13,734 nucleotides of DNA from Methanotrichaceae archaeon (GTDB taxonomy: Archaea > Halobacteriota > Methanosarcinia > Methanotrichales > Methanotrichaceae), in the NCBI GenBank assembly GCA_963813075.1, contig CAWEXU010000025.1, positions 1 through 13,734 of the forward strand, in the 5' to 3' direction. The translations under genes were made by a program, and so were the position numbers. Shown here piece by piece: positions 1-13,734 of this stretch (the first letter of the stretch is position 1; each line of letters begins with the position of its first letter). The notes under the pieces are model-generated. The model saw only the letters and a program-made list of their open reading frames with translations, made no database searches and was not told the origin of the DNA.

Positions 1-38
1 CCTTCTTGCCGTTCTTTCGTTGCCAAAACACCATCCAT
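1..38 (-). CDS. Probable 5' end of the next gene of the operon, running off the left edge; product unknown
   Basis: GGATGTGAT (57..49, minus strand) is the same RBS-like string found before the gene starting at 1891. An ATG at 38 opens MDGVLATKERQE..., open to the edge. An ATG at 34 in another frame (MVFWQRKNGKK) is an alternative start. Confidence 0.35.
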   Translation of the reverse strand, partial: MDGVLATKERQE

Positions 39-64
39 TGATATGTTAATCACATCCAAATTCC

Positions 65-361
65 TTAGAATGAATAAATCCGACTGCCTTCTGCCACCAT
101 CTCTTCCACCAGGAGCTGGTAGAAGTCTTCAGGCACCCTCACCCCTTCTCCTGCCTGCAATCCTCTCGCTTCCAGGTCCTCATTGCAGGCCATAACCTTT
201 CCAGGCCATTCTCTCATGAGGGCCTCATCCAGAAGATTGTAGACCCCATCTCCCGCCAGATAGAGAACGGGATCTTCACTGTGCTCCATCAGGCGCAGGC
301 ACAGCTCTGCCCGTTTACTCTGGGGCGGGTTGGTCAGAAGGAAGATATCTCTATTTGCCAT
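65..361 (-). CDS. dsrH: DsrH/TusB-like sulfur relay subunit, 98 aa
   Basis: Motifs LLTNPP, LYLAGDGVY, EDLEARGL and DFYQLLVE match the DsrH/TusB pattern. It has Cys21 and a GGTGA RBS, and is third in a dsrE-dsrF-dsrH-like order. Confidence 0.8.
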   Translation of the reverse strand: MANRDIFLLTNPPQSKRAELCLRLMEHSEDPVLYLAGDGVYNLLDEALMREWPGKVMACNEDLEARGLQAGEGVRVPEDFYQLLVEEMVAEGSRIYSF

Positions 362-371
362 AATTCACCCT

Positions 372-713
372 TCATAGTGCAATCAGATCGTCGGCAGCAA
401 GGGCCTGCTTCACGAAATCCTCCTCATCGAGAAGTTCCACCCTCTCCACCAGCCCACGGCTCAAGAGGCCCCTCTCCACCAGGGAGGGCTCGTGTGCCAG
501 GACCCGCAGCTCGGGAAAGGCATAGAGGATATCGGAAAGATTTGGCACATCAAGAAGGCTGGAGTTCTGACCGGCAAGGGCAAGATACACGCCATCCGCG
601 TACAGGCCCAGCGTTGCATCCATCTTGATGCTCACCGCTGCCGCATTGAGAACGCCATAAGCCTTTTCGCTTCCATAGGGCGCGCTGTCGAGAAGATAGA
701 AGATCGATCTCAC
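372..713 (-). CDS. dsrF: DsrF/TusC-like DsrE-family protein, 113 aa, GTG start
   Basis: Motifs LLDSAPYGSE, LYADGVYLALAGQ and SLVERGL; no Cys at the DsrE active position. The GTG at 713 overlaps the upstream TGA (GTGA coupling), so the ORF-track start at 842 is over-extended. Confidence 0.75.
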   Translation of the reverse strand: MRSIFYLLDSAPYGSEKAYGVLNAAAVSIKMDATLGLYADGVYLALAGQNSSLLDVPNLSDILYAFPELRVLAHEPSLVERGLLSRGLVERVELLDEEDFVKQALAADDLIAL

Positions 714-1072
714 AGCGCAATCACCCGGTCGCTCTTCTCCAGCATCTCTGCCAGGTCGTAGAGGCTGGTGATCTTTATCCCCTGCAAGTAATCCGGGCAG
801 CTTCCGTCCTCCTCTGCCAGATAGCCTCTGGCAGCAGCGCATCTGGCGCAGGCCCTGACCACAGCTCCTCTATCTGCCAGCTCCTGGAAGAGCCTTCCAG
901 TATTTTTAAATTGAGAGGGATTCTGGCCGCTCTTTGGTATATGGACTGCATCCAGATAGAGGAATATGTTCACTTGGAACACATTGAGCGCCCGGGAGGC
1001 GATCTTATAGGCCATATCTGCATACTGGGAGATATAAGGCCCGTCTGTGAGGATGATGGTCAAGGTCTTCAA
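710..1072 (-). CDS. dsrE: DsrE/TusD-like sulfur relay subunit, 120 aa, TTG start
   Basis: Motifs ILTDGPY, IFLYLDAV, ACARCAAARG (C75/C78, persulfide-carrying region) and SLYDLAEMLEKSDRVIAL. A GGTGA RBS lies upstream. Confidence 0.85.
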   Translation of the reverse strand: MKTLTIILTDGPYISQYADMAYKIASRALNVFQVNIFLYLDAVHIPKSGQNPSQFKNTGRLFQELADRGAVVRACARCAAARGYLAEEDGSCPDYLQGIKITSLYDLAEMLEKSDRVIAL

Positions 1073-1093
1073 CTGCTCACCTGCATGGCATCC

Positions 1094-1891
1094 TCAAAGG
1101 TACTCCAGCAGAGTCCTGATGTGCTCGAGATTGGTGGCATACCTGGGCTCGATTAGCGGCGTGCATTTATCGATCTCGGTCTCCCTGCCCACCAGCTTGA
1201 TGGCAAAGGCATAGCAGCTCTGCTCGCCGCAGATCTGGCAGTCGGTGCGGGGAAGGTACTGGTAGATCTCGGCATGGTCCACTTTGACCTTCTCCCGCGG
1301 AGCGGGAGTGACTCCCTTAATAATGGCCTCATTGATGGTCTTTTTCAGGTCCTCCAGAACCTCTCTGGCCTCTGCCTCGCTCTTGATCATGGTCATGGTC
1401 ACATTGCCCGTGGAATATATGGTGATCAGAATATTGCCCCTCTGAATGATCAGAGCGCCGATCCGATCGGAGTACCTGGCTCTGGGGAAGAGGGGCTCCA
1501 ATAGCTTGAGGGCTCCTTCCAGCGGTGGCTCGAAGCGGGCGATTATCCTGAACTTGCTGCTGTCGGCGATGCAGGGCAGGAGCTGACGCAGATCGACGAC
1601 CTGTAGAGGTCTGGTGCCAGCCAGGCTTTTTTTAGCTTCAGCCGGCTTCTCGGACTTGGTCTCCATGAAGTTCTTTCCGAAATCCGTGATGACGACCCTG
1701 TCCTCTCTCATGTCAGCCAGGCCTGCTTGCTTGAGCATTTGCAGGTGGTAGTCGAGCATGGTACCTCCCACTGCCTGCTCTATCTCTTCATTTGTCCTCT
1801 CTTTTTCCACCAGCATGGCCATGATCTTCCTCCTCGTAGCATTGGCCATGGCATTGCTCACGAGCTTAACATCAGCAGGCGATCCAGTCAT
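1094..1891 (-). CDS. Winged-HTH protein with a central alpha/beta domain and a C-terminal putative [4Fe-4S] domain (COG4871-like), 265 aa
   Basis: N-terminal ArsR-like wHTH (ANATRRKIM...LDYHLQMLKQAGL) and a PCIAD motif. The C-terminal LPRTDCQICGEQSC-x16-C is the CxxCx4Cx16C FeS domain also found in AcsC/RnfB N-termini. Confidence 0.8.
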   Translation of the reverse strand: MTGSPADVKLVSNAMANATRRKIMAMLVEKERTNEEIEQAVGGTMLDYHLQMLKQAGLADMREDRVVITDFGKNFMETKSEKPAEAKKSLAGTRPLQVVDLRQLLPCIADSSKFRIIARFEPPLEGALKLLEPLFPRARYSDRIGALIIQRGNILITIYSTGNVTMTMIKSEAEAREVLEDLKKTINEAIIKGVTPAPREKVKVDHAEIYQYLPRTDCQICGEQSCYAFAIKLVGRETEIDKCTPLIEPRYATNLEHIRTLLEYL

Positions 1892-1910
1892 TTTATATCA
1901 CATCCGGATT

Positions 1911-3008
1911 TCAAGTGCGTTCACAGAATATCTTCTCCGGGGCGGAAGGATAGTACCTGTCCTTCAGCTTTAAAGCCACATTCACCAGGGCGATCAGGAC
2001 CGGTACCTCGATCAAGGGCCCAATGACCGCAGCGAAAGCCTCCTGGGAGGCGATGCCAAAGACGCCCACGGCAACGGCGATGGCCAGCTCGAAGTTGTTG
2101 CTGGCCGCAGTAAATGAGAGGGCGGCAGTGTTCTCGTAGCTCACGCCCAGCTTGTAGGACATAAAGAAGCTGACCGAGAACATCAGCAGGAAGTAAATGG
2201 CCAAAGGTATGGCCACCCGCACCACATCCAGGGGGAGCTGCACGATATAGTCCCCCTTAAGGGAGAACATGACAACTATGGTGAAGAGCAGGGCGATGAG
2301 GGTTAGGGGCGATATCCTGGGCAGGAAATCCCTCTCATACCAGCTATTTCCCCGCGCCCGGATGAGGCTGAACCTGGTGATTATCCCTGCCAGGAAGGGT
2401 ATTCCCAGGTAGATGAATACGCTTTCAGCGATCTGGGATATGGTAACATCAACAGCTATGCCCGCCGCTATTCCCAAAGCTGCCGGCAGGACGGTGATGA
2501 AGATGTATGCATAGATGGAGTAGAAGAACACCTGAAAGATGGAGTTGAGTCCCACCAGGGCGGCGCAGTACTCGGTGCAGCCGCAGGCCAGCTCGTTCCA
2601 GACGATGACCATGGCGATGCAGCGGGCAAGTCCTATGAGGATTATGCCATACATGAGATGAGGCGAGTCCCGCAGGAAGATCACAGCCAGGGCGAACATC
2701 AGAATGGGGCCCACGATCCAGTTTTGAATCAAGGAGAGGCCCAGGACCTTTCGATCTGTAAAGACCTGTCCCAGCTCCTCGTACTTGACCTTGGCCAGAG
2801 GTGGATACATCATCAGTATCAGGCCGATGGCAATGGGAATTGAGGTCGTGCCGATCTGCAGGCTGAGGATGAACCGGGTTATGCCGGGAGCATAATAGCC
2901 AAGGGCGATTCCCATGATCATGGCCACGAATATCCAGATGGTAAGGTAGCGAGAGAGAAAATCCAGCCCCTTGCTCACCCCATTTGACCCACTTGATCCA
3001 CTTGACAT
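1911..3008 (-). CDS. acr3: ACR3-family arsenite efflux transporter, 365 aa
   Basis: Motifs [53 protein letters not shown] and [11 protein letters not shown]; about 10 hydrophobic segments. Confidence 0.97.
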
Positions 3009-3035
3009 ATCGCTCCATCATCCCAAAAAATGCAA

Positions 3036-4037
3036 TTATGTCTTGCCGAGCTTTACGTACTTAGAATCAGTATCATCTCCCTTACCCTCATGCGCCTGCC
3101 AATCCCCCCAGGAGTAGACGGCAGCCTCATAGCCCATGAGCTGCAGAGAATAAGCCACCAGAGCAGATTGGCTGTAGTCATCGGAATAGACCACAATCGG
3201 CATATCCTTATCCAGCCGGCTGAAGACGGTTCCTAGATCGCCACCATTCTTGATTTTATCCCCTTTGATCACATTGGCCGGGTCCAGGGCTGTGGAGGCT
3301 GGTATGCGGCCTTTTCCAAAGTCCACAAAAGGCCGGACGTCCACGATCCGAGCCTGGCCGGACTTAACATAATCGTATTCTGCTATCACGCCAGGCCTTG
3401 CGGTGGGAATATATTCAGCAGCAGGAATTATAGTCTCCTGGGCCTCAACCGGCAGGCCTGCAGCCTTCCAGTCATCCAGGCTTCCGTCCAATAGCATCAC
3501 ATCCTCCTGCCCCAGATGTCTCAGGACCAGGAATGCTAACTGCGCCTCGCCGGAGCTTTCAGCACTTCCATATACAACTACGGAGTCCTCTTTAGAGAGG
3601 CCTGCCTCACCCAGGAGCCTGGAAAGCTCTTCATCGCCCTTGAGATTGCCATTGCTGTCCAGAAAGTCCTTGCTGGGGATGTGAATGGCGTTCTTGATAT
3701 GAGATGCAGCATAGCCATCTCCGTTGGATGCATCTATTATCACATCAGAGCTGGAGACGCTCTTCATGGGCTTCATGATACTGCCATTGGGGTATGATGC
3801 CAGCCTATCGGGCGGATCTTGAGGGCTGCTGGAGCTTCTTGCTTTGCTTTCTTGCGATCCTTCTGCCTGGGCGGACTGGATGGGCTGACTGGGCAGGCCT
3901 GCGCCGGGATCGGAGTTCAGAAATCCGCTAGGGTCCCAGGTGCCTCCACTGCAGCATCCGCCAGCATTGGCCAGGGGAGCTAGAGTTAACAAAGAAATCA
4001 TGAGAATTGCAGGAATAATAAAATCATTTTTTGTCAT
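3036..4037 (-). CDS. Exported tandem-rhodanese-fold protein lacking catalytic Cys, 333 aa
   Basis: Signal-peptide-like N-terminus (MTKNDFIIPAILMISLLTLAPLANA) followed by GGCCS and a Ser/Pro/Gln-rich linker. Rhodanese motifs IIDAS...HIKNAIHI, VVVYG, LDGSLDDW and IVDVR...GRIPAS. The ATG at 4037 has a GAGG RBS and is preferred over the ORF-track start at 4067. Confidence 0.8.
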   Translation of the reverse strand: MTKNDFIIPAILMISLLTLAPLANAGGCCSGGTWDPSGFLNSDPGAGLPSQPIQSAQAEGSQESKARSSSSPQDPPDRLASYPNGSIMKPMKSVSSSDVIIDASNGDGYAASHIKNAIHIPSKDFLDSNGNLKGDEELSRLLGEAGLSKEDSVVVYGSAESSGEAQLAFLVLRHLGQEDVMLLDGSLDDWKAAGLPVEAQETIIPAAEYIPTARPGVIAEYDYVKSGQARIVDVRPFVDFGKGRIPASTALDPANVIKGDKIKNGGDLGTVFSRLDKDMPIVVYSDDYSQSALVAYSLQLMGYEAAVYSWGDWQAHEGKGDDTDSKYVKLGKT

Positions 4038-4443
4038 TGGAGTTGCCTCTTTGGTCTTTTGATTCAATCAATATGTTCACTAGATTAAGCATCTCAATCA
4101 CTGCTCCTTCTGAGAGCCTGTATCTGGACCATCTTCCGTCTTTGCGCTCTTTGATCAGACCGGCATTCTTGAGGATGGTGAGATGATGAGAAGTGCTGGA
4201 TTGGGGTCGGTCCACGCTGATCATGATCTCGCAGGCGCATAGCTCCCCCTCCCGCAGAAGAGAGAGTATCTTGAGGCGGCAGGGATCGGCCATTGCCTGG
4301 AAGATCTCAGATTCCGTTTTGAGCTCCTCTTCATCCAGGTCCATGGTCAGAGTGCGCAACCTGTTCACTTTGCATTCTGCCTTATCGCGATCGCCGATGA
4401 GCCTGGTCATCCTGTCGACGGCCTCTTTGGATATGCAGGACAT
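4024..4443 (-). CDS. arsR: ArsR/SmtB-family repressor, copy 1, 139 aa
   Basis: Motifs ADPCRLKIL, GELCACEI (CxC As(III) site), SHHLTILKNAGLI and RKDGRWSRYRL. AGGAG RBS. Confidence 0.93.
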   Translation of the reverse strand: MSCISKEAVDRMTRLIGDRDKAECKVNRLRTLTMDLDEEELKTESEIFQAMADPCRLKILSLLREGELCACEIMISVDRPQSSTSHHLTILKNAGLIKERKDGRWSRYRLSEGAVIEMLNLVNILIESKDQRGNSNDKK

Positions 4444-4458
4444 GAGTCTCCTATCGCC

Positions 4459-4602
4459 TCAGCAGCATGAGCAGCTTTTTTGAGCACATAGATTGTCTCT
4501 CTCTTTCTGCAGGCAATCGCTGCAGATCCTGATTTTTCCCTTTTCTTTATGTGTAACCAGGAAAAAGGATTTTCCGCTTCTATTGCATATTTCGCATTCC
4601 AT
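4459..4602 (-). CDS. Small Cys-rich protein, 47 aa with 8 Cys: CxxC...CxxC zinc-finger-like core plus a C-terminal CSCC tail
   Basis: Sequence MECEICNRSGKSFFLVTHKEKGKIRICSDCLQKERDNLCAQKSCSCC. It has a GAGGT RBS, lies directly downstream of the TATA/operator, and ends 15 nt before arsR. Confidence 0.75.
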   Translation of the reverse strand: MECEICNRSGKSFFLVTHKEKGKIRICSDCLQKERDNLCAQKSCSCC

Positions 4603-4630
4603 CGTGACCTCAAATAAGCAATACAACACC

Positions 4631-4662
4631 ATATCCAGCAATCTCGATATATAAGAGTTTCC
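4631..4662 (-). promoter_or_regulatory. Archaeal promoter (BRE + TATA) with overlapping palindromic ArsR-type operator, driving the acr3/dsrEFH operon
   Basis: The minus strand reads GGAAACTC-TTATATA-TCGAGATTGCTGGATAT. The plus-strand core is ATCCA-gcaatc-TCGAT (4633-4648), flanked to give ATATC-N10-GATAT. Confidence 0.75.
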
Positions 4663-4849
4663 AGTCAGGCGGTGAAGGGCAGGTACGACATCTGACGATA
4701 ATTATATATATTTAAATTGATATATGTATTCCTGCTGTCTGCAAATCTTATTTGACAACCATTGATTCATAATTCATTTTAAATATAATACAATGCATGA
4801 TCTTAAAGCAAATGTTTTCCTCAGGTATGTCTATATAGATCGAATTGAC

Positions 4850-4920
4850 GAAAGTCTTATATCCAATAATGTCGATGTGCTGAGATTAGCTCCTCATACC
4901 AACAGCAAGATGTCGATGTG
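4850..4920 (+). promoter_or_regulatory. Promoter with ArsR-type operator ahead of the thioredoxin-ccdA operon, plus an 11-bp direct repeat
   Basis: GAAAGTC-TTATAT (4850-4862) overlaps ATCCA-ataatg-TCGAT (4861-4876). ATGTCGATGTG occurs at 4869-4879 and again at 4910-4920. Confidence 0.6.
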
Positions 4921-4966
4921 ATAGTTGGATCGGCATGAGAATGAGTGGGGAATAGGAGAGTGTATC

Positions 4967-5512
4967 ATGGATATTGTATCGAGAAAATATGGCATTGCCT
5001 CATTAATTGCATTAATCCTTATCGCTTTAGGCTTCAATGCCACGGGAGCTGAATATTCAGTGGGATCGGAAAGCGATGACTGGTGGACAGAATATCCCGA
5101 TCAGTCCACTGGTGCAGGCGGCGATGTCAGCCATCCTGATTGGGTATTGGACGCTCTGGAGAACAAGCCTGTGCTGATCTATGTGCATAAAGAATGTGAT
5201 TATTGTGTACCACAGACCGAGGCCGTGCAGAAGATAATCGACGAATTCGACGGGAAGATCACGATCTTCGAGATGGGGGCCGATGGCAGTGATGCCAGGT
5301 CTGGTGAAGCCCTGCAGGCCTATGATCCCAATGGCGGCCTCGACATGTTCGTTCCTCTGACTGTCATATTGACCCTGGCTCCCGATTCTGAGGGCGAGGT
5401 CGTGGCAGTCTGGCACAGCTCGGATGAAATAACGGGCGAAGAGTGGATCAGGAATTATGTGGAGGACGCTATAAGCCAATATGATGAGAACTCCGCAGAC
5501 TGGGATAATTAA
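4967..5512 (+). CDS. Exported, acidic thioredoxin-fold protein, 181 aa
   Basis: Signal-peptide-like N-terminus, KPVLIYVHKECDYC (CxxC) and a cis-Pro-like FVPLTVIL. The ATG at 4967 has an AGGAG RBS and is preferred over the TTG at 4925. Confidence 0.8.
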   Translation: MDIVSRKYGIASLIALILIALGFNATGAEYSVGSESDDWWTEYPDQSTGAGGDVSHPDWVLDALENKPVLIYVHKECDYCVPQTEAVQKIIDEFDGKITIFEMGADGSDARSGEALQAYDPNGGLDMFVPLTVILTLAPDSEGEVVAVWHSSDEITGEEWIRNYVEDAISQYDENSADWDN

Positions 5513-5542
5513 TGACGGATCTCAGATAAAGGGATCGTTGCC

Positions 5543-6964
5543 ATGTCCACGAAATGTAAGAAATCCCTGATATCGGGACCCGTCACACTTTTTGCTGTTA
5601 TAATTTCCATTATCTTTTCCATCTTCTTCATATGCTCATCACCTGCTCTATCCCAGGTAGCTATGGCCCCTGATTTTCAGGCAGTAGATCTTGATGGGAA
5701 AAATGTCTCCCTCTCCGACTATCGGGGTGAGGTAGTCCTGCTCCATATCACCAACATAGAAAATCCCCTCTGTAGGGAGTGCGAGAATGCTCTTGATGCC
5801 CAGACCAACCAGCTCTCTCAGCTTGCCGAAAAGGATGCCGGCGTGAACATCATAACCCTCAATGTGCGGAAGAATTCCTTCTCATTGGATGGGCGAGCAC
5901 TGGCTGAGGGATGGTGGAAGGCCAATATCACCTGGCCCTGGATTGAGGACTTTGACCCATTTCCGCTCACCGGCAAGTACATCGACTACTCAACTCTGGA
6001 GGGGGGCTTTGCTAATCCTACTCTGATTTTTATCGATAAAGAGGGGAATGTGGCAGATCTCTACCACGTCTATCAACTGGGCAAGGGGGAGATAGACGGC
6101 ATCCAGAGTGCTGAGTCGTTGAAAAGCAGTCTTGAGAGAATAGAGGCAGGCGAGGCCTCCGGATTCGAGGGAATCGCCTCCAGCCAGGGCATAAACTATC
6201 TGGGCATGTTCGCCCTGGGAATTGTCACCTCCCTCTCCCCCTGCTCCATAGCGCTTCTCCTGGCCATGTTCTCCTATGTTATGACCGCCCGCAGGAAGGA
6301 CGAGTATCTGAGAAAGACAGCCTCGGCATCAAAAGAGGGCTTTATGATCGGCATAGCCTTCACTCTGGGCATGGCGGCGGTATTTTTCATCGTGGGTTTT
6401 TTCCTCTCGGATATCGGCGTTTTCATCCGCCAGGCCCGCTTCTTTGACCTGGCTGCGGGTCTTTTGATGATCATCCTGGGGATAAACATCATCAAGCCCA
6501 TTGGGGAGATCATCGAGCCGGTGCGCTCACGCCTTTCTTTTGGCAGAGGCAATTCCGATGCGATTGATGAGGAGACGATAGCGGAGAAGAAGGGGATCAT
6601 GGAGAGACTGGTTTCAGTCTCTATGAACCTCTTCCGGTACTCGGCATTCATCGGTGCCTTCACTCTGGGGGTCTTCTTTGCCCTGGGATGGGCCCCATGT
6701 GCCGTGTCCCTGGTCTTTCCGGTGCTCATCTGGCTTATATCCCAGGACGTGACGCCTTTGGGCGGAGCCCTGATGCTCTTTGTCTTCGGGGTGGGCCATG
6801 GAGTGCCGGTGATTCCCATCGCCACCTTCTCCAGAGCTGTGGGCGGGCAGATCGGTGAGAAGTACATCGCTGCTGGAAAGCATGTCACAAAGATATTCGG
6901 TCTGGCGGTAATCGTCATCGGATTGATCTATGCGGTGAGGTATCTGGGGTTCAAGATGTGGTAA
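5543..6964 (+). CDS. ccdA: Fusion of a redoxin (TlpA/ResA-like) domain and a CcdA/DsbD-beta membrane thiol-disulfide transporter, 473 aa
   Basis: N-terminal signal/anchor, then APDFQAVDLDGKNVSLSDYRGEVVLL, CREC and PTLIFIDKEG. The multi-TM C-terminal domain carries the two Pro-Cys motifs (LSPCS, WAPCA). Confidence 0.88.
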   Translation: MSTKCKKSLISGPVTLFAVIISIIFSIFFICSSPALSQVAMAPDFQAVDLDGKNVSLSDYRGEVVLLHITNIENPLCRECENALDAQTNQLSQLAEKDAGVNIITLNVRKNSFSLDGRALAEGWWKANITWPWIEDFDPFPLTGKYIDYSTLEGGFANPTLIFIDKEGNVADLYHVYQLGKGEIDGIQSAESLKSSLERIEAGEASGFEGIASSQGINYLGMFALGIVTSLSPCSIALLLAMFSYVMTARRKDEYLRKTASASKEGFMIGIAFTLGMAAVFFIVGFFLSDIGVFIRQARFFDLAAGLLMIILGINIIKPIGEIIEPVRSRLSFGRGNSDAIDEETIAEKKGIMERLVSVSMNLFRYSAFIGAFTLGVFFALGWAPCAVSLVFPVLIWLISQDVTPLGGALMLFVFGVGHGVPVIPIATFSRAVGGQIGEKYIAAGKHVTKIFGLAVIVIGLIYAVRYLGFKMW

Positions 6965-7021
6965 TGCGAAAAGAGTATGCCCCGCGGTGAGGAGGCCACC
7001 TCCCGCTGGGCTTTTGCATTA
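6962..7021. terminator. Long imperfect GC-rich hairpin between convergent genes; possible terminator or RNA-stability element
   Basis: Nested pairings TAATGC/GCATTA, AAAA/TTTT, GCCC/GGGC, GCGG/CCGC and GAGG/CCTC, starting at the ccdA stop codon. Confidence 0.5.
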
Positions 7022-7110
7022 TCGAAAAGCGGTTTATTCAGGATGGACAGCAGAAACGGAATTTGTGATCTGCCCAAGAGGATAGACAGCGGATCTTCCA
7101 TCGATCACCG

Positions 7111-7454
7111 TCATCGGTCATAAGAGGGAACAGAAATAGATGGTAATTTCAGCGGATCTTTGGTCCTATCGTCTTCCAGACTCTCCCTGGCCAGATACCT
7201 CAATCTTTCCAGTATGTCCCTGGCCCTCTGCACGCTGTCGCACTGGGAGAGGTCCTTGGGATTGCAGCAGGCCAGAAGGTCCATCATCCTATCCGCCAGG
7301 GGGAAAAATCCCTTCTCCTCCAGGCTCTGCAGCAATAGGGCTGCACGATGGTTGAAATCCCGGCACTCAGAAGATTGGGTGATCTTTTGGTGACTTATGC
7401 AGAGATTTCGATCTCCTGCAGGATCTCTAGATCTCCATATTGCTTTGCCATCAT
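7111..7454 (-). pseudogene. Frameshifted Cys-rich helical hypothetical protein, about 114 aa if one base is restored near 7406-7408
   Basis: The ATG frame reads MMAKQYGDLEILQEIE(ISA*). A second frame, with no ATG upstream of its internal Met-Met, reads NLCISHQKITQSSECRDFNHRAALLLQSLEEKG...LACCNPKDLSQCDS. Adding one A (GAA AAT CTC) joins them. A TTAAAA box lies 24-29 nt upstream of the ATG. Confidence 0.55.
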
Positions 7455-7589
7455 CAGGGCAAATGGCAGGCAGGGGATTTTAATGTAACCGGCGCCCAAC
7501 AGAACTTCAGCACAAATCCGCCTCCTGCGCCAAAAAGCATTAAAGCGATAAAAGAAGAACTGGCCCTGGCATAGGCCGGGATGATTTTC

Positions 7590-7841
7590 ATGATCAATGT
7601 ATCAATCGATAGAGAGGGCTGCATAAGCTGCGGCCAGTGCTGGGGGGACTGCCCCGATCTCTTCGTTGAGAATGAACAGGATGGCAAGAGTCAAATCGCC
7701 GAGAAGTTCCGCATAGCTGGGAAGCTGGATGAGGGAGTCGCTTTTGAGGATCAAGAGGAATGCGCAAAGAAGGTGGCAGAGGAGTGTCCCTCTCAGGTGA
7801 TAGGCGTGAGCCCTCCGGCAATGGGCTTCGATCCGATCTAA
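7590..7841 (+). CDS. Monocluster [4Fe-4S] ferredoxin, 83 aa (alternative start at 7581)
   Basis: VSIDREGCISCGQCWGDCPDLF...EECAKKVAEECPSQVI gives CxxCxxC...CP cluster ligands plus a likely disulfide pair. Confidence 0.9.
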   Translation: MINVSIDREGCISCGQCWGDCPDLFVENEQDGKSQIAEKFRIAGKLDEGVAFEDQEECAKKVAEECPSQVIGVSPPAMGFDPI

Positions 7842-7910
7842 CTCATTTTTTCCTCATTGCCATCCGGCCGGACAAAATGCTGATTTACCATAAAGGCACC
7901 TGGATATCAG

Positions 7911-8408
7911 ATGAAATCAGATTCTGCATCCAGTTTGGCAGAAGGGAAGAGGAAGGTCCTGTTTCTCTGCACTCACAACTCCGCCCGCTCCCAGATGGCT
8001 GAGGGGCTCCTGCGGGCCACGTATGGCGATCGATATGAGGCCTATAGCGCCGGGGTTGAGGCAACCGCAGTCGACCCCCGCGCTGTGCGGGCCATGAGTG
8101 AGATCGGCATTGATATCTCCGGCCAGCGCTCCAAATCCTCCGAGGAATTTCTGGATACGGTCTTCGACCTGGCGGTCACTGTCTGCGACCGGGCCAGGCA
8201 GGCCTGCCCCATCTGCAGCACAAATATCGAGCTTCCCGCCCGAACGCCCCGCGCGAGAGAGGTCATCCACAGAAGCTTCCTGGATCCGGCGGCGACAAGA
8301 GGATCGAAGGAAGAGGAGATGCAGGCCTTCAGAAGAGTGAGAGATGAGATAAAGGAGTGGATCTCTCAGACCTTTGAGGATGATGTCAGGACTCTTTTTT
8401 CGCCCTAA
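7911..8408 (+). CDS. arsC: Arsenate reductase, LMW-PTP fold, thioredoxin-coupled type, 165 aa
   Basis: Motifs VLFLCTHNSARSQMAEG (CX5R), YSAG, EIGIDIS, VTVCDRARQACP and DP...AFRRVRDEI. Confidence 0.95.
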   Translation: MKSDSASSLAEGKRKVLFLCTHNSARSQMAEGLLRATYGDRYEAYSAGVEATAVDPRAVRAMSEIGIDISGQRSKSSEEFLDTVFDLAVTVCDRARQACPICSTNIELPARTPRAREVIHRSFLDPAATRGSKEEEMQAFRRVRDEIKEWISQTFEDDVRTLFSP

Positions 8409-8450
8409 TTCGCCTGCAATATTTCCATTTCTTTTCTCATTCTGCAACTA

Positions 8451-9356
8451 TCACAAAGCCAGCCAGTTGGCCAGATATCCGACCGCAACCGCTATTGCGA
8501 TGATGGTGAGCACAAAGGCTGCCAGCATCTTCCTTTTGAATATGGCGGAAAGGAGGGTCAACTCAGGGATGCTCGCGCCCGCTCCGCCGATGACCAGGGC
8601 CAGCACAGCTCCAGTGCTCATCCCTTTCTCTATGAGGGCCAGGCCGATGGGGATCATTGTCTCCGCCCGGATGTAGATAGGGACGCCTATGATTGCCGCC
8701 ACGGGAACAGCAAAGGGATTTCCCGCTCCGGCGATGCTTGATATCAGCTCCGTAGGCACGAATCCATGAATGAAGGCTCCGATTCCCGCTCCCAAGAGAA
8801 GATAGGGCACAAGCTGGCGGAATAGGCTGAAGGCGAATCTTGCCGAGCGCTGCACTCTTGATTTTGCATCCTCAGCCGGCTTACAGTCGCAGCAGCCTCT
8901 CACCGCGGCCACAGATTTAACCTGGTTGGCAAATCCCAGACTGTCAAGCATCAGACCGATTACGATTGCCGCCAGGAAGGTGACGGAAAAGTAGAGAGCA
9001 GTTATCTTCCAGCCCAGTAGAATGATGAACAGGGACACTATCACCGGATTGAGCAGGGGCGAGGCAAACAGAAATGCCATTGCAGATGCAAAGGGCACGC
9101 CCGCATTGAGCATTCCCAGGAGCAGAGGTATGGTCGAGCAGGAACAGAAAGGGGTAAGAGCACCAAAACCGGCGCCCAGAAAGCTGCCCAGGATCCTGTG
9201 TCGCCCTCCTAAAGCTCTCTTAATGGTCTCATCAGGCACATACTCCTGGATCAGCCCCACGAGAAAGGTTATCCCTATGAATAATACTATCAGTTCTACT
9301 GCAATCTCTAGGAAAAAGCTCATAGCCGTCGCTAGAGTTGTCAAAGAACATCTCAT
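8451..9356 (-). CDS. arsP: ArsP (DUF318) permease, probable organoarsenical efflux, 301 aa
   Basis: Motifs LTPFCSCSTIPL, FLFASPLLNP, GVPIYIRAETMIPI and GAGASIPE; two hydrophobic halves joined by a GCCDC loop. Confidence 0.92.
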   Translation of the reverse strand: MRCSLTTLATAMSFFLEIAVELIVLFIGITFLVGLIQEYVPDETIKRALGGRHRILGSFLGAGFGALTPFCSCSTIPLLLGMLNAGVPFASAMAFLFASPLLNPVIVSLFIILLGWKITALYFSVTFLAAIVIGLMLDSLGFANQVKSVAAVRGCCDCKPAEDAKSRVQRSARFAFSLFRQLVPYLLLGAGIGAFIHGFVPTELISSIAGAGNPFAVPVAAIIGVPIYIRAETMIPIGLALIEKGMSTGAVLALVIGGAGASIPELTLLSAIFKRKMLAAFVLTIIAIAVAVGYLANWLAL

Positions 9357-9381
9357 CCCACCACTTAAAAATCTTTTAGTG

Positions 9382-9801
9382 TTACTTTATCTTCTTCAGC
9401 TCTCGAGCCTGCTTGATCATCTCATTGACAGCGCTGTCTGCCAGGCGGTAGTAGGACCATTTGCCATCCTTTCGCTCTCTGACCAGTCCTGCCTCTCTGA
9501 GAATGGATAGATGATGGGAGGTGGTGGACTGAGGCTTATCAAGAGCAGTCATGATCTCGCAAACGCATAGCTCTCCTTCCTTCAAGAGCTTCACAATCCT
9601 GAGCCTGCAGGGATCGGCAACGGCCTTGAAGACCTCCACCTCTCCTTCCGGGCCATCAATGTCGATCGCCTTCATCAATGATAAGAGCCTTCTGGTCCTC
9701 GACCGCGCCCGATCCTCATCTCCGATGAGCCTGGCCAGGCTGCATATTGCAGCCTCATCGATTGATTCCTCAATGATCTCATCATTCGTCGAATCTGGCA
9801 T
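9382..9801 (-). CDS. arsR: ArsR/SmtB-family repressor, copy 2, 139 aa
   Basis: Motifs ADPCRLRIV, GELCVCEI, SHHLSILREAGLV and RKDGKWSYYRL. GGTGA RBS. Confidence 0.93.
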   Translation of the reverse strand: MPDSTNDEIIEESIDEAAICSLARLIGDEDRARSRTRRLLSLMKAIDIDGPEGEVEVFKAVADPCRLRIVKLLKEGELCVCEIMTALDKPQSTTSHHLSILREAGLVRERKDGKWSYYRLADSAVNEMIKQARELKKIK

Positions 9802-9889
9802 AACTGTCTATTTCACCCACCAACTACTCATAGATTTCTGGCCGGGTCATGAATGCAGGAATGGCTTTTATGGCCTTTTGCATTGGATC

Positions 9890-10183
9890 CTATTTTTTTC
9901 GGGCTTCGAAGTACCTCTGATATTCTGCCAAAAAGGCAATTTTATACATCTCCTCCGCCCCCTCGGCGATGAAGTTGAGCTTTTTCAGCTCCTCGACCAG
10001 CTCACTTCCGGTGGAGTCCTCTGGCTTCTTTCCCTTTTTAAAGAATTCCTGGAGGGCTTCATCCAGGCCCATGATTCCTACGCTGCGTCCACCTACGTTG
10101 ATCTGTCTGAGTCCCACAATGCGGGTGCTGCAGCAACAACCGCTGCTGCCCTTATCTTTGAAGATCTTATCTTTCAGTCCCAT
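9890..10183 (-). CDS. Small hypothetical protein with an N-terminal CCC motif, 97 aa
   Basis: Sequence MGLKDKIFKDKGSSGCCCSTRIVGLRQINVGGRSVGIMGLDEAL...LKKLNFIAEGAEEMYKIAFLAEY. The ORF-track GTG at 10192 is part of the GTGAT RBS for the ATG at 10183. It is the first gene after the TATA/operator. Confidence 0.8.
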   Translation of the reverse strand: MGLKDKIFKDKGSSGCCCSTRIVGLRQINVGGRSVGIMGLDEALQEFFKKGKKPEDSTGSELVEELKKLNFIAEGAEEMYKIAFLAEYQRYFEARKK

Positions 10184-10196
10184 GGTAATCACAGAT

Positions 10197-10225
10197 CATA
10201 TCAATATTTGCCGATATATAATGCT
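10197..10225 (-). promoter_or_regulatory. Promoter (TTATATA) with overlapping ArsR-type operator, driving the CCC protein-arsR-arsP operon
   Basis: CATATCAATATTTGCCGATATATAA (10197-10221) matches CATATCCAGCAATCTCGATATATAA (4630-4654) at 18 of 25 positions. Confidence 0.75.
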
Positions 10226-10294
10226 TGCGCCTTATCCCGATTAAGCTAGAATTTGATGTGCAAAGCATCAAAATCATTCTGAAATCCAAAGTCA

Positions 10295-10385
10295 GATAAA
10301 TTTTAAGAATAACGCATCGATGATTGTAGATATGAAATATTGCTTTAAAGAGATTTTTCTGATTTTTCAGAAAATCTTAAATAAT
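10295..10385 (+). promoter_or_regulatory. Promoter region of the hgcC-like/arsM operon, with an ArsR-type box and a second, unrelated palindrome
   Basis: TATA-like TTTTAAG (10301-10307), ATCGA-tgattg-TAGAT (10316-10331), TTTTCTGA-N4-TCAGAAAA (10355-10374) and TATA-like CTTAAATA (10376-10383). Confidence 0.55.
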
Positions 10386-10404
10386 CAGAGATCACGATAT
10401 TATT

Positions 10405-10680
10405 ATGGCGGCTAAATCCGAAGACAAAGCCTGTTGCCTGCCGGGATCGATGAGCTCATGCCGAGTGGAATCCATAGTAAGCGTAGATGAGCGCGGGCAG
10501 ATGGTCCTCCCCAAGGATATCAGGGAAAGGGCAAAGATCCGGCCAGGAGACAAGCTGGCAGTGGTGAGCATGGAGAAGGATGGCAAGATCTGCTGCTTAT
10601 CATTGATCAGGGTTGAAGAGCTGGAGGGCATGGTGAAATCTGTGCTGGGGCCGGTTATTGAGGATATATTCAAGAAATAA
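10405..10680 (+). CDS. hgcC: AbrB/MazE/SpoVT-fold protein of the Cys-rich HgcC-like type, 91 aa
   Basis: VSVDERGQMVLPKDIRERAKIRPGDKL is an AbrB swapped-hairpin signature. ACC, CRVES and KICCLSLI resemble, from memory, the HgcAB-associated HgcC of methanogens; the symbol is tentative. Confidence 0.8.
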   Translation: MAAKSEDKACCLPGSMSSCRVESIVSVDERGQMVLPKDIRERAKIRPGDKLAVVSMEKDGKICCLSLIRVEELEGMVKSVLGPVIEDIFKK

Positions 10681-10711
10681 TACTATATTTAGAATTTGAG
10701 GTGAACTAACG

Positions 10712-11464
10712 ATGAACGATTCGGAAATAAAGGTACTGGTAAAGGATAGGTACGGAAAAATAGCCGGGAAAGGAGGCTCGTGCTGCCCCACCAAGGGCTC
10801 ATGCTGTGGAACTGCTCCCCCGGAGGAGATCAGCAAAGGTATCGGCTACTCAGAGGAAGAGATGAATGCCGTGCCCCAGGGGGCAAATCTGGGCCTGGGC
10901 TGCGGCAATCCAATCGCGCTGGCATCGATCAAAGAAGGGGAGACTGTGCTCGACCTGGGCTCGGGGGCGGGATTTGACAGCTTCCTTGCCGCCAGCAGGG
11001 TCGGACCGACAGGAAAGGTCATCGGAGTGGATATGACCCCGGAGATGATCAACAGGGCAAGAGAGAATGCAGCTAAAGGAAGCTACAGCAATGTACATTT
11101 CAGGCCTGGCGAGCTGGAGGATCTGCCGGTTGAGGATAATAGCGTGGATATTGTCATCTCCAACTGCGTCATCAACCTGGTGCCCGACAAAGAGAAGGCC
11201 TTCAAAGAAGCCTTCCGGGTGCTCAAGCCCGGCGGCAGGCTGATGGTCTCAGATCTCGTCCTGCGCCAGGAGCTGCCTCTTGGCATAAAGGAATCAATCG
11301 AAGGCTATGTGGGCTGCATATCGGGAGCAGCTATGAAGGATGTCTATCTGGATGCGATAAGATCTGCAGGCTTCGACGAAGTCGCAGTTATTGAGGAATC
11401 CGCCTTCAACGGATTTGCAGACTCCGTATCCAGCATAAAGGTAAGGGCCATCAAGCCGCTATGA
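10712..11464 (+). CDS. arsM: Arsenite S-adenosylmethionine methyltransferase, 250 aa
   Basis: Motifs NLGLGCGNP, VLDLGSGAGFD, GVDMTPEM, ISNCVINL, RVLKPGGRL and VGCISGA, with an N-terminal GSCC twice. GAGGTGA RBS. Confidence 0.96.
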   Translation: MNDSEIKVLVKDRYGKIAGKGGSCCPTKGSCCGTAPPEEISKGIGYSEEEMNAVPQGANLGLGCGNPIALASIKEGETVLDLGSGAGFDSFLAASRVGPTGKVIGVDMTPEMINRARENAAKGSYSNVHFRPGELEDLPVEDNSVDIVISNCVINLVPDKEKAFKEAFRVLKPGGRLMVSDLVLRQELPLGIKESIEGYVGCISGAAMKDVYLDAIRSAGFDEVAVIEESAFNGFADSVSSIKVRAIKPL

Positions 11465-11471
11465 TGGTGGG

Positions 11472-11530
11472 ATCAGGCCCGGGATTTGGGGATTAGAGGC
11501 CTGATTTTCCTTTATCTATTTTCTGATTGT
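11472..11530 (+). terminator. Inverted repeat followed by T-rich tracts after arsM
   Basis: ATCAGGCC (11472-11479) pairs with GGCCTGAT (11498-11505), followed by TTTCCTTTATCTATTTTCT. It lies between convergent genes. Confidence 0.45.
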
Positions 11531-11549
11531 ATAGATCTATTAAAAATGC

Positions 11550-12965
11550 TCATCCTTTGTGGGAGGAGTTGCTTGAATTTGTGCCTGCAACCATCGATAA
11601 TATGCCATCTATGATCCATTTATGGCTATCGTCTGGCGCAACCTTGATTATCTCTTTCAGGTAAGTGGAACTGCAATCCGATGAATCCGTCAGCCATTGA
11701 AGTCTCTTATAATTGTTAATGAGGTCTTGGTAAGCAGCATCATCGAACTCAAGATGACTTATGCAATCCCATTTTAAATAGAGCCAATCATATCCAGCTC
11801 CAGTTAAATTGATGGTATTAATCTGGGTGCTCTCGAAATGGACATTCTTTTTAAACTGTGTATTATAGAAATTGACTCTATCGCTGAACGCAGTTCTGCT
11901 GAAGTCGGCCGGACCGCTGAAGATGGAATCGCTGAAATCAGCATCATATGCAAACTTCGAACCTCCAAAATCGGCAAATCCAAGGAAATTGCTTCCGCTG
12001 AATTCTGCTGGTTCAAGAAAAGTTGTATTATTGAATATGGTATCAACCTGGAAATCGGATTCTTTGAAGGTGGCGTTTTTAAGGAAATTACAGTCGCCGA
12101 ACTCGACTAGATCATCAAACCTGGCCCTTGCGAAGAATGCCGGACCCTCGAATTGAGTCCGATCAAATCGAACCTCCTTTTCAAACTGCACTGAATTGAG
12201 GGCTATAGATTCGTTGAATACAGATTCAGAAAATTGAGCAGACCCGGAGAATTTTGCACCATCAAATGAGGTCTCTTTTTCGAATCTGGTTCCATTGAAT
12301 TCCACATCCTGATTGAACTGAGATGCTATGAATTTGGCTTCTCCTTTAAAATCTGTTTTATCAAAGAGGGCATCAGATGAGAATTGGCTGGAGGCGAAAT
12401 TGCCAACTGAGTGGAACTGGGCGAGGGAGAAATCAGCAATGCCGCCAAATTTGGCGGCATTAAATGATGCCGGCCGGCTGAAACGGGTTTGGAAGAAATT
12501 CGCCTTGCCGTCAAACCTTGATCCTTCGAAGCTTCCTTCTTTTAAAAATATAGAATGATTAAATGCAGCATCGTCATTGAAAGTTGAGTTTACAAATAAT
12601 GCATTTTCGACAAAAAACACATTCTCGAAGCTGACCTGCTTATGAAATTGTGTGTTGTTAAAGTCCACTCTGCCGCATATAATGGAATTTTTGATCACGA
12701 CAGATGAATTGACCTGCATCTGCTTGGATTGCGGCATCTTCACCTCAAAGGGGATGCGCAAGATCTGCTTGGCAGTCATACCCAGCCGGTCAGATGTAAG
12801 GTTTCCTTTTATGACCGTATTTTCGTACTCCACTGGCAAGCCCAGCCTCATTTTGATCATTATATCATCGGCTGCTACCACAGTCTCCGATTCGCTAAGA
12901 GCCTTCAGGGGAGTGCAAAAGATCAAAACCAATCCAACCAGGATAATAGTTAAAGCATGCTTCAC
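11550..12965 (-). CDS. Exported pentapeptide-repeat-type (Phe-periodic beta-solenoid) protein, 471 aa, GTG start
   Basis: Signal-peptide-like N-terminus and many 11-residue A-x-F-x-x-x-x-F-x-x-x units (for example ADFSLAQFHSV, ADFSDSIFSGP). GGAG RBS. Confidence 0.85.
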   Translation of the reverse strand: MKHALTIILVGLVLIFCTPLKALSESETVVAADDIMIKMRLGLPVEYENTVIKGNLTSDRLGMTAKQILRIPFEVKMPQSKQMQVNSSVVIKNSIICGRVDFNNTQFHKQVSFENVFFVENALFVNSTFNDDAAFNHSIFLKEGSFEGSRFDGKANFFQTRFSRPASFNAAKFGGIADFSLAQFHSVGNFASSQFSSDALFDKTDFKGEAKFIASQFNQDVEFNGTRFEKETSFDGAKFSGSAQFSESVFNESIALNSVQFEKEVRFDRTQFEGPAFFARARFDDLVEFGDCNFLKNATFKESDFQVDTIFNNTTFLEPAEFSGSNFLGFADFGGSKFAYDADFSDSIFSGPADFSRTAFSDRVNFYNTQFKKNVHFESTQINTINLTGAGYDWLYLKWDCISHLEFDDAAYQDLINNYKRLQWLTDSSDCSSTYLKEIIKVAPDDSHKWIIDGILSMVAGTNSSNSSHKG

Positions 12966-13234
12966 GGGTCATCTCCTTCCAAATATTAAGCCTCATGCTC
13001 AACTTTAGGTTGCTTTACGCCCTATCTATGCGTATATCTGAGAGGCTATATTTCTGATGGATACACTCCATTTTGATCCCTGGCAAGTCTCTCTTAAATT
13101 TGCAGCTATTTGCCCACTCTGATAGAGGCAGTTTGCTTTTCAAGTATAAATGGTTTTGCTTCCATATCTATATAGAATCATTCATTCTATAGACTCCTTA
13201 ATACTTGTTGACTCCCTCGTACGACCAACTCCAC

Positions 13235-13734
13235 CTATGACAGACGCTGAGGCAGGAACCTCTCGTGAAGCTTTATAGAAACCACAAGGAAGAGCAGGGT
13301 GGACACCACCAGGACGGCCAGATCTATGGGAAGCGAGTAATAACTTATGCCCGTTGTCGAATATCTTGCCAGGTCAATGAAATAGGTTAGCGGTGAAGCT
13401 GATGCGATGGTTTGCCCCCATGCAGGCATCTCTTCTACCGGGACGAAAACACCGCTGATGAAGACCAGGGGAAACCTCACCAGCGAGGATAGCATCATCA
13501 CAGTGGCAGGCACATCCGTAGGCGGATAGACTGACAGCAATATGCTCAACGATGCAAAACAGATGGTTGCCAAAATCATGCCCAGGCAGAAGACCAGGAG
13601 GTGCACAACTTCTACGCCCATCAATACGGCGACGGCCAGGGGCATGATGGAGATCAGCAATCCAAAGACGAACGAAGCGAAGACATCCCCAAGAAGAAGG
13701 GCCCAGACCTCCACCGGAGAGGATACCAGCCGTT
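13235..13734 (-). CDS. ABC-2 type transporter permease, C-terminal part; the 5' end lies outside the window
   Basis: The frame is open to the edge (RLVSSPVEVW...). Motifs FPLVFISGVFVPVEEMPAW and SPLTYFIDLAR; several TM segments. Confidence 0.88.
   Translation of the reverse strand, partial: RLVSSPVEVWALLLGDVFASFVFGLLISIMPLAVAVLMGVEVVHLLVFCLGMILATICFASLSILLSVYPPTDVPATVMMLSSLVRFPLVFISGVFVPVEEMPAWGQTIASASPLTYFIDLARYSTTGISYYSLPIDLAVLVVSTLLFLVVSIKLHERFLPQRLS

Follow-up and report, generated by a model that had tools for sequence, protein, structure and literature searches.

The closest described relatives of the genes considered here are the subunits of the type I DsrEFH complex of Allochromatium vinosum (PDB entry 2hy5) and of its Escherichia coli counterpart TusBCD (2d1p). 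Published reports assign roles in sulfur transfer to DsrE Cys78 and DsrH Cys20 (PMC3397948) and describe a second class, DsrEFH type II, which belongs to sulfate reducers and cable bacteria, is syntenic with tusA and yeeE, and accompanies dsrAB (PMC13293266). Here we analyze a stretch of 13,734 nucleotides from a Methanotrichaceae archaeon (GenBank assembly GCA_963813075.1, contig CAWEXU010000025.1, positions 1 to 13,734 of the forward strand), hereafter termed the window, which comprises one entire contig (C25) of a 2.7-Mb source genome that is 83% complete. The window is a Methanothrix arsenic island that covers nearly all of positions 65 to 11464, and it contains a four-gene module encoding an iron-sulfur (Fe-S) protein and relatives of DsrE, DsrF, and DsrH. 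Our analysis indicates that the module is genuine and conserved, that it is an accessory of the methanogen arsenic regulon, and that it has apparently not been described before.

The conserved unit consists of exactly these four genes. Among the best 80 of 138 relatives from a single GTDB scan, the Fe-S gene lies immediately 5′ of dsrE in every locus, and where there is enough flanking sequence dsrF comes next in 78 of 79 and dsrH in 75 of 76. A strict arsenic resistance (ars) gene, defined as a homologue of acr3, arsC, arsM, or arsP with arsR counted apart, is present in 55 of the 80 loci, and in 32 of the 40 that are well flanked (at least 5 kb on either side); when arsR is counted too, the latter value rises to 37. 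As a background, 3.0% of the source genome lies within 8 kb of a strict ars gene. We attach no P value to this linkage because related genomes are not independent. The neighborhood survey that the sequence-only reading of this DNA had called for thus revealed conserved linkage to ars genes. Searches of plasmids recovered a single Fe-S homologue, which is bacterial, and six weak DsrE matches from haloarchaea.

A similar association is evident among 68 genomes of the class that are at least 90% complete, 36 of which carry the module. In those 36 we found arsM in 35, acr3 in 30, arsC in 30, and arsP in 19, as compared with 16, 3, 9, and 3, respectively, in the 32 module-free genomes. Note that these searches used strict cutoffs and single queries, so divergent homologues were missed. 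The module almost never occurs without ArsM, though ArsM is common. In two Methanosarcina-type genera, all eight module genomes encode arsM and five of the eight are without close homologues of arsC and acr3, which led us to reject a dependence of the module on ArsC or on this Acr3 alone.

In the window the module occupies the distal half of a run of eight co-oriented minus-strand open reading frames (ORFs), all of which are present with the gaps previously claimed for them (15, −14, 27, 19, 21, −4, and 10 nucleotides). The proposal that they form one fixed operon did not hold up. The gene directly upstream of the module across the 80 loci is acr3 (23), arsR (21), ccdA (10), a paralogue of the Fe-S gene (9), or another gene (11), the remaining six loci reaching a contig end. 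On a tree of DsrE plus DsrF, built from the 78 rows (drawn from the 80 loci, L106, and the window) in which ORFs for both proteins were recoverable, the acr3 and arsR neighbor labels each need at least seven changes. Locus L126, whose DsrE is 98% identical, even carries an arsR of its own inserted between acr3 and the Fe-S gene. The run of eight genes thus represents one arrangement of a labile junction. Where acr3 does adjoin the Fe-S gene, the junction is short (17 to 95 nucleotides in 29 loci). A distant version of the module has the order Fe-S, H, E, F (L106, L209, and L211), and in L106 the trio is directly followed by a pair of ArsP-family permease genes.

Evidence that the module shares control with the arsenic genes comes from the promoter region. 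An archaeal TATA box (4647–4654) with an upstream purine-rich stretch resembling a B recognition element (together 4647–4662, minus strand) is conserved among relatives, and it is overlapped by a 20-base-pair imperfect palindrome, ATATCnA-N6-TnGATAT, at positions 4631–4650 that is the best-scoring operator site in the window (25.3). This agrees with the earlier description of one TATA box and operator ahead of the run, and a scan of positions 1–4630 gave no operator site scoring 8 or higher. The palindrome presumably resembles bacterial ArsR boxes of the form ATCAA-N6-TTGAT. Two weaker sites lie elsewhere in the window: one at 4859–4878 (score 11.8), 5′ of the thioredoxin-like/ccdA gene pair that diverges from the eight-gene run (4925–6964), and one at 10198–10217 (score 10.9), 5′ of a unit comprising the ORF at 9890–10192, a second arsR, and arsP. 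Two more sites were seen on contig C22 (3962 and 4054; L311), between divergent genes of a second metal(loid) island that contains an arsR and paralogues of the rhodanese.

The operator occurs in 20 distinct promoters among 34 upstream regions, and the scoring matrix was trained only on these 20 promoters of the unit led by the small first ORF and arsR. We applied this matrix to 25 Methanosarcina-type loci, leaving out duplicates (L160 and L167) and loci of unclear family (L147, L168, and L200). Matches within 300 nucleotides 5′ of the module Fe-S gene or its tandem paralogue were found in 20 of the 25, with the site 140 to 200 nucleotides upstream; when only the gene adjoining the module is considered, the number is 10 of 25. 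Among the controls, none of 226 ORFs matched, and two sites were seen in 400 kb. Two of the five misses (L095 and L103) sit downstream of an arsR-arsP unit that has the box. This operator test gives the best indication that the module is part of the regulon rather than merely residing nearby, and it upholds the idea of a shared ArsR-type box, which is found ahead of the module in loci where acr3 does not adjoin it as well. Promoters of modules led by arsR carry a conserved operator variant in 23 of 24 cases.

The likely binder of the operator is ArsR, because sites precede arsR-led units that have no Fe-S gene and because the recognition-helix pattern S-x-x-S-x-H-L is present in 60 of 92 ArsR proteins compared with none of 129 helix-turn-helix (HTH) domains of the Fe-S protein. 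The ArsR/SmtB repressor of the window (4024–4443, minus strand) scores 91.1 bits with NF033788 (cutoff of 55) and has the α3 sequence ELCACEI (C69 and C71) in addition to C55. As(III)-sensing α3 ArsR proteins are defined by three α3 cysteines, corresponding to Cys32, Cys34, and Cys37 of the R773 protein (PMC12607644). The window protein has two of the three; the third is absent, and the nearby C55 may substitute. On the basis of this α3 motif As(III) would be the inducer, and the module is likely repressed by ArsR and induced by arsenic. We consider it very probable that the module is a member of the arsenic regulon.

Other transcription signals are less informative. A purine-rich, ribosome-binding-like stretch precedes each downstream gene, and a run of six T residues in the gap between the rhodanese gene and acr3 could attenuate transcription. 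Terminator-like matches numbered 5 in the window and 3.2 ± 1.8 in shuffled sequences, which is not clearly above chance, and the sigma-70/terminator scan is unsuited to archaea. An Rfam search of the window gave no match. Contigs from RNA libraries (4 of 23 listed runs) include one, X1 (457–2103), that spans acr3, the Fe-S gene, dsrE, and dsrF, and the rhodanese–acr3 gap is bridged as well. We did not count these as evidence of co-transcription or induction because contigs cannot show a single transcript and because X7 is even across the window, as DNA would be.

The DsrE/YchN-like protein of the module (710–1072, minus strand; PF02635, 65.7 bits against a gathering cutoff of 22.7) has the cysteines C75 and C78 of a CxxC motif, as had been reported, and also C92. 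Both CxxC cysteines are invariant (108 of 108 sequences). In alignments with 1jx7, 2hy5_A, and 2d1p_A, C75 corresponds to the sulfur-binding Cys78 of A. vinosum DsrE and E. coli TusD, in support of the sequence-only reading, and the extra C78 aligns with the second cysteine of YchN. The DsrF/TusC-like protein (372–713, minus strand; GTG start) is free of cysteine, again as claimed; its Pfam score is 29.6 against 22.7, and its best PDB match is 2hy5_B (E = 4.7e-12). The DsrH/TusB-like protein (65–361, minus strand; PF04077, 29.1 bits against 24.4) has the expected C21, retained in 97 of 98 sequences, as well as a previously overlooked C59, retained in 83 of 98. C21 aligns with DsrH Cys20 in a weak match to 2hy5_C (E = 0.077).

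We also found 20 single-chain proteins of 323 to 425 amino acids (P0171, P0200, P0206, P0208, and 16 more) in which two DsrE-type domains follow an N-terminal third domain, which suggests that the separate subunits of the module may act together. All 20 keep the CxxC motif of the module, and one cluster is labeled Lokiarchaeota. Their DsrF part is supported by hhalign (95.3%). Identification of the N-terminal domain as DsrH was unsupported (10.9%).

The trio is nevertheless not the complete canonical relay that the sequence-only reading proposed. DsrC/TusE (PF04358) was not found in the source genome (83% complete) or in any of the five near-complete module genomes searched, and TusA (PF01206) was not found in the source genome and occurs in only two of those five, distant from the module. 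Curated models score below their cutoffs as well (TIGR03012, 34.6 against 89.25; TIGR03010, 29.8 against 94.15; TIGR03011, 45.3 against 49.2). A DsrC/TusE-dependent role in tRNA thiolation or in reverse Dsr (rDsr) metabolism was rejected.

The partner that is always present is the Fe-S protein (1094–1891, minus strand), which comprises a winged HTH, a TBP-like domain with Cys107 in a PC motif, and a four-cysteine domain of the CdhE/RnfB type (C218, C221, C226, and C243). Cys107 is retained in 144 of 144 homologues and the cluster cysteines in 142 to 143. This protein had been described as a regulator, a claim that we do not sustain: its HTH scores 28.5 bits against an ArsR cutoff of 55, never carries the ArsR recognition motif, and is lacking in the homologues linked to the module in L106 and L046, although DNA binding through some other code is conceivable. 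A search with the Fe-S part of P0293 against proteins of 316 to 1007 amino acids gave 30 matches, and all are fusions of a cysteine desulfurase with the Fe-S protein (P0293 and P0305–P0333; Firmicutes, TIGR01977). The PC motif is kept in 28 of these apparently uncharacterized fusions and the four cluster cysteines in all 30, and in L208 the Fe-S gene is unfused and directly follows a cysteine desulfurase gene. The fusions support the suspected link of this protein to sulfur and, together with the dispensable HTH, make it more likely that the Fe-S protein is an enzyme partner rather than a regulator. The source genome encodes a NifS that scores above its cutoff. The ESM Atlas yielded only unnamed PF04060 clusters (below 0.9).

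Homologues of the Fe-S protein that lack the HTH are also found by themselves in other archaea; some belong to acr3/arsP clusters, whereas others adjoin TauE or DsrC genes. In L117, L237, and L238 such a gene ends an acr3 cluster and dsrC is next, which may be chance within a single lineage. In another archaeal lineage (L108, L118, L119, and L212–L217) it adjoins TauE/SafE-family and universal-stress genes. In L219, L249, and L255 the Fe-S gene is followed by that of an ArsF-family protein, often with a ccdA-like gene; the L219 copy is above the NF040494 cutoff, and arsM is close to the pair in L249 and L255. Separately, L046/L205 and L199 represent deep-branching second copies of the module whose HTH is diverged or absent, and the L046 copy is near a radical SAM/SPASM gene.

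We consider persulfide chemistry with the Fe-S protein as partner to be somewhat favored. Only tentatively do we suggest that the Fe-S protein replaces TusA/DsrC and that DsrE passes sulfane sulfur to trivalent (methyl)arsenic. Sulfane sulfur is known to convert arsenite to thioarsenate. In the corresponding scheme, As(III) would bind the α3 cysteines of ArsR and thereby free the TATA box, a step for which linkage and operator are observed and induction is presumed. Cys107 of the Fe-S protein would then accept a persulfide from a housekeeping cysteine desulfurase, as the bacterial fusions suggest, in place of TusA/DsrC, while the Fe-S cluster would reset the redox state of the cysteine. By homology, the sulfur would move onto Cys75 of DsrE within a DsrEFH-type complex. 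In the most speculative step, the extra vicinal Cys78 would help to capture As(III) or methylarsenite (MAs(III)), and the captured arsenic would accept the sulfur and depart as a pentavalent thio-arsenical. This would be the equivalent of MAs(III) oxidation without oxygen. This persulfide-shuttle reading is preferred because the fusions indicate which way sulfur flows, the regulon points to the target, and the dithiol provides a place for arsenic to bind. Induction, complex formation, persulfide flow, and the acceptor are all inferred here. The most specific form of the proposal, in which the module is a dedicated anaerobic, cysteine-fed arsenic sulfurtransferase that turns arsenite and ArsM-made methylarsenite into (methyl)thioarsenates, we regard as unlikely.

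Several observations weigh against the shuttle. A vicinal second cysteine could resolve the persulfide to H2S, so that reduction fits better than donation, and DsrE-like proteins are described as having a single conserved cysteine in one preprint (10.1101/2023.12.18.572138). Only 1 of 226 loci contains a cysteine desulfurase homologue, contig C1, which carries nifS, yielded no operator site, and the Fe-S protein is also found without DsrEFH. Regarding the regulon, we infer rather than observe the binder of the operator, and the operator variant of the 24 arsR-led module promoters falls mostly below the matrix threshold. The module copy of L205/L046 has neither an ars neighbor nor an operator, and L163 and L199 have no operator box at the Fe-S gene. 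Finally, arsM is common regardless of the module (16 of 32 module-free genomes), among relatives that are not independent.

A reductive role is possible, if somewhat unlikely. Here ferredoxin would feed the Fe-S protein, which would reduce a C75–C78 disulfide of DsrE, and DsrE would strip sulfur from thioarsenate, yielding As(III) for Acr3 or ArsM, or would re-reduce ArsC, ArsM, or arsenylated thiols. The invariant CxxC suits a resolving pair, the cluster domain is of an electron-transfer type, TusA/DsrC were not found in the source genome, and one clade (the 10 ccdA-led loci) has thioredoxin-like and ccdA genes upstream in the same orientation, often with ferredoxin-arsC-arsM downstream. Such a role explains the CxxC motif and the co-orientation with ferredoxin and arsC equally well as the persulfide shuttle does. 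However, ferredoxin is near the module in just 6 of 40 loci, a close arsC is missing in five of the eight Methanosarcina-type module genomes, and the desulfurase fusions indicate that sulfur enters the Fe-S protein. Moreover, characterized DsrEFH complexes take no sulfur from thiosulfate according to two reports (PMC3397948, PMC13293266). The same fusions, together with the retained relay-type cysteines, would suit an arsenic-induced relay that rebuilds Fe-S clusters or thio-cofactors damaged by As(III) and leaves arsenic itself untouched; DsrE/F-like genes of Thioalkalivibrio also change expression under As(III), with a role described as unclear (PMC6620896). We judge this supply of repair sulfur to be rather unlikely, given that no scaffold or carrier family is among the annotated recurring neighbors (34 representatives), that so general a role needs no tight retention beside efflux and methylation genes, and that the extra Cys78 is left unexplained.

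Vicinal dithiols bind trivalent arsenicals, and the conserved cysteines might accordingly serve as a chaperone or buffer that binds As(III) or MAs(III) and passes it to Acr3, ArsP, or ArsM, with the Dsr fold a mere scaffold and no sulfane sulfur involved. The ArsP-family permease pair directly after the L106 trio is consistent with this proposal, as is the DsrE-like CxxC protein SaoD of the SAO system, whose neighbors include an ArsP-family exporter (10.1101/2022.07.06.499078). It is nonetheless improbable, as the invariant Fe-S partner and the fusion of that protein to a cysteine desulfurase are left unexplained. Highly improbable, in our estimation, is that the module is a passenger, namely a cassette for reactive-sulfur or general metal stress with its own ArsR-family regulator that has accumulated in resistance islands. 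A dedicated arsR away from acr3 is seen in 21 of 80 loci, 8 of 40 well-flanked loci contain no strict ars gene, and a deep-branching copy is without an ars link, all as a passenger would predict. These findings are outweighed by the operator common to the module and the arsR-acr3 unit in distant relatives, by the LCxCEI motif in 17 of 27 dedicated ArsR proteins, by the score of the window ArsR with the BigR model (36, far below 155), and by concordant presence of acr3 and the module in 32 of 34 genomes of the family.

Of the remaining genes of the run, the first ORF very likely begins with the ATG at 4602 and encodes a Cys-rich 47-amino-acid protein (4459–4602, minus strand) with two CxxC pairs, a C-terminal CxCC, and no family match; the alternative start TTG 4641 was rejected because it falls within the operator. 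The four CxxC cysteines are kept in 34 to 35 of 35 homologues. This protein is usually encoded directly 5′ of arsR and is a possible small metal(loid)-binding protein. Acr3 (1911–3008, minus strand) scores 442.9 bits with TIGR00832 (cutoff of 282.8) and has motifs A, B, and C. Between arsR and acr3 lies the gene for a tandem rhodanese-fold protein (3036–4037, minus strand; PF00581), which had been counted as part of the relay. Its only cysteines are at positions 28 and 29, with none in either active loop; among 46 homologues, no listed second loop contains cysteine, and a first-loop CxxC is present in 17 but not in the window protein. The N-terminus is hydrophobic (mean hydropathy of 2.56), as in 42 of the 46 homologues, and resembles a signal peptide by hydropathy alone. 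The protein is thus predicted to be exported and non-catalytic. Because of these features, and because a rhodanese gene lies close to the module in just 17 of 40 loci, we place this protein outside the chemistry of the module and rejected it as a sulfur donor.

A ninth co-oriented gene begins 11 nucleotides past dsrH (1–53, minus strand; start only) and is truncated at the contig end. It is a paralogue of the ORF at 9890–10192 and is complete 3′ of dsrH in the close relatives L030, L031, L054, L126, and L127. Near position 15 the window has one base more than the contigs from two public runs; the extra base would frameshift this gene and is possibly an assembly-end error. The rest of the island (7581–11464) encodes a ferredoxin, an ArsC-like reductase of the low-molecular-weight phosphatase type (123.8 bits, below the TIGR02691 cutoff of 174.3), an ArsP-family permease, the second ArsR, a Cys-rich small protein, an HgcC-like AbrB protein (124.5 against a cutoff of 70), and ArsM (profile score of 341 bits against a cutoff of 263). 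The HgcC-family AbrB-like gene (10405–10680) is directly 5′ of arsM. A pentapeptide-repeat protein is encoded at 11550–12965, in a stretch of lower GC content (0.42–0.47) adjoining the island. The source genome carries a second copy of the island on contig C6 (approximately 9300–21100; L054 and L055) with approximately 82% to 97% protein identity, in which the rhodanese gene, ccdA, arsC, and arsP are frameshifted and acr3, the Fe-S gene, and dsrE/F/H are intact. A third arsM (98%) is on contig C21.

Digesters, sediments, and paddy soils harbor abundant Methanothrix and Methanosarcina; in these settings arsenic encounters sulfide, and methylated thioarsenates are relevant to rice. The module adds a four-gene ars accessory that is a concrete target for deletion in genetically tractable Methanosarcina, making the enzymatic formation or undoing of thioarsenicals by methanogens testable, and it provides a functional hypothesis for a widespread uncharacterized Fe-S protein. 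It also cautions against reading dsrEFH/tusBCD annotations in methanogens as signs of sulfur oxidation or tRNA thiolation. If the proposed sulfurtransferase were real, methanogens would possess an oxygen-free equivalent of ArsH and the first enzyme-catalyzed source of compounds that are generally attributed to abiotic sulfide chemistry, and the Fe-S partner would be a new class of persulfide carrier replacing TusA/DsrC in archaea and Firmicutes.

Canonical ars operons (arsR-acr3-arsC, arsM, arsP) share with the window the ArsR, Acr3, ArsC-like, ArsM, and ArsP-family genes, whereas none of the literature searched listed the four-gene module as an ars component. Our full-text search, of a collection with few subscription journals, recovered no paper describing it, and the main text of the report on DsrEFH type II contains no occurrence of "arsenic" or "methano" (PMC13293266). 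Type II is likewise a divergent trio with a sulfur-binding cysteine in that text (PMC13293266); in our case TusA was not found in the source genome, and no YeeE is among the window proteins. The module resembles DsrEFH type I and TusBCD in its three ordered subunits of the E, F, and H types and in its equivalents of Cys78 and Cys20. It differs from them in scoring below the NCBIfam cutoffs for TusD, TusC, and TusB, in its extra vicinal cysteine, in being without DsrC/TusE and mostly without TusA, and in its obligate Fe-S neighbor and ars context. The TIGR01977 desulfurase fusions of Firmicutes have the same PC motif, TBP-like domain, and four-cysteine domain as the Fe-S protein (hhalign, 99.5%); they have no HTH, and L208 is without an evident DsrEFH or ars context. 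A model of SaoD gave no match at an E value of 0.01. The CxxC motif of the module DsrE is shared with SaoD, encoded near an ArsP-family exporter (10.1101/2022.07.06.499078), and with the active site of E. coli YchN (1jx7), its best PDB match (E = 3.2e-07), but unlike these proteins the module DsrE is accompanied by distinct F and H subunits.

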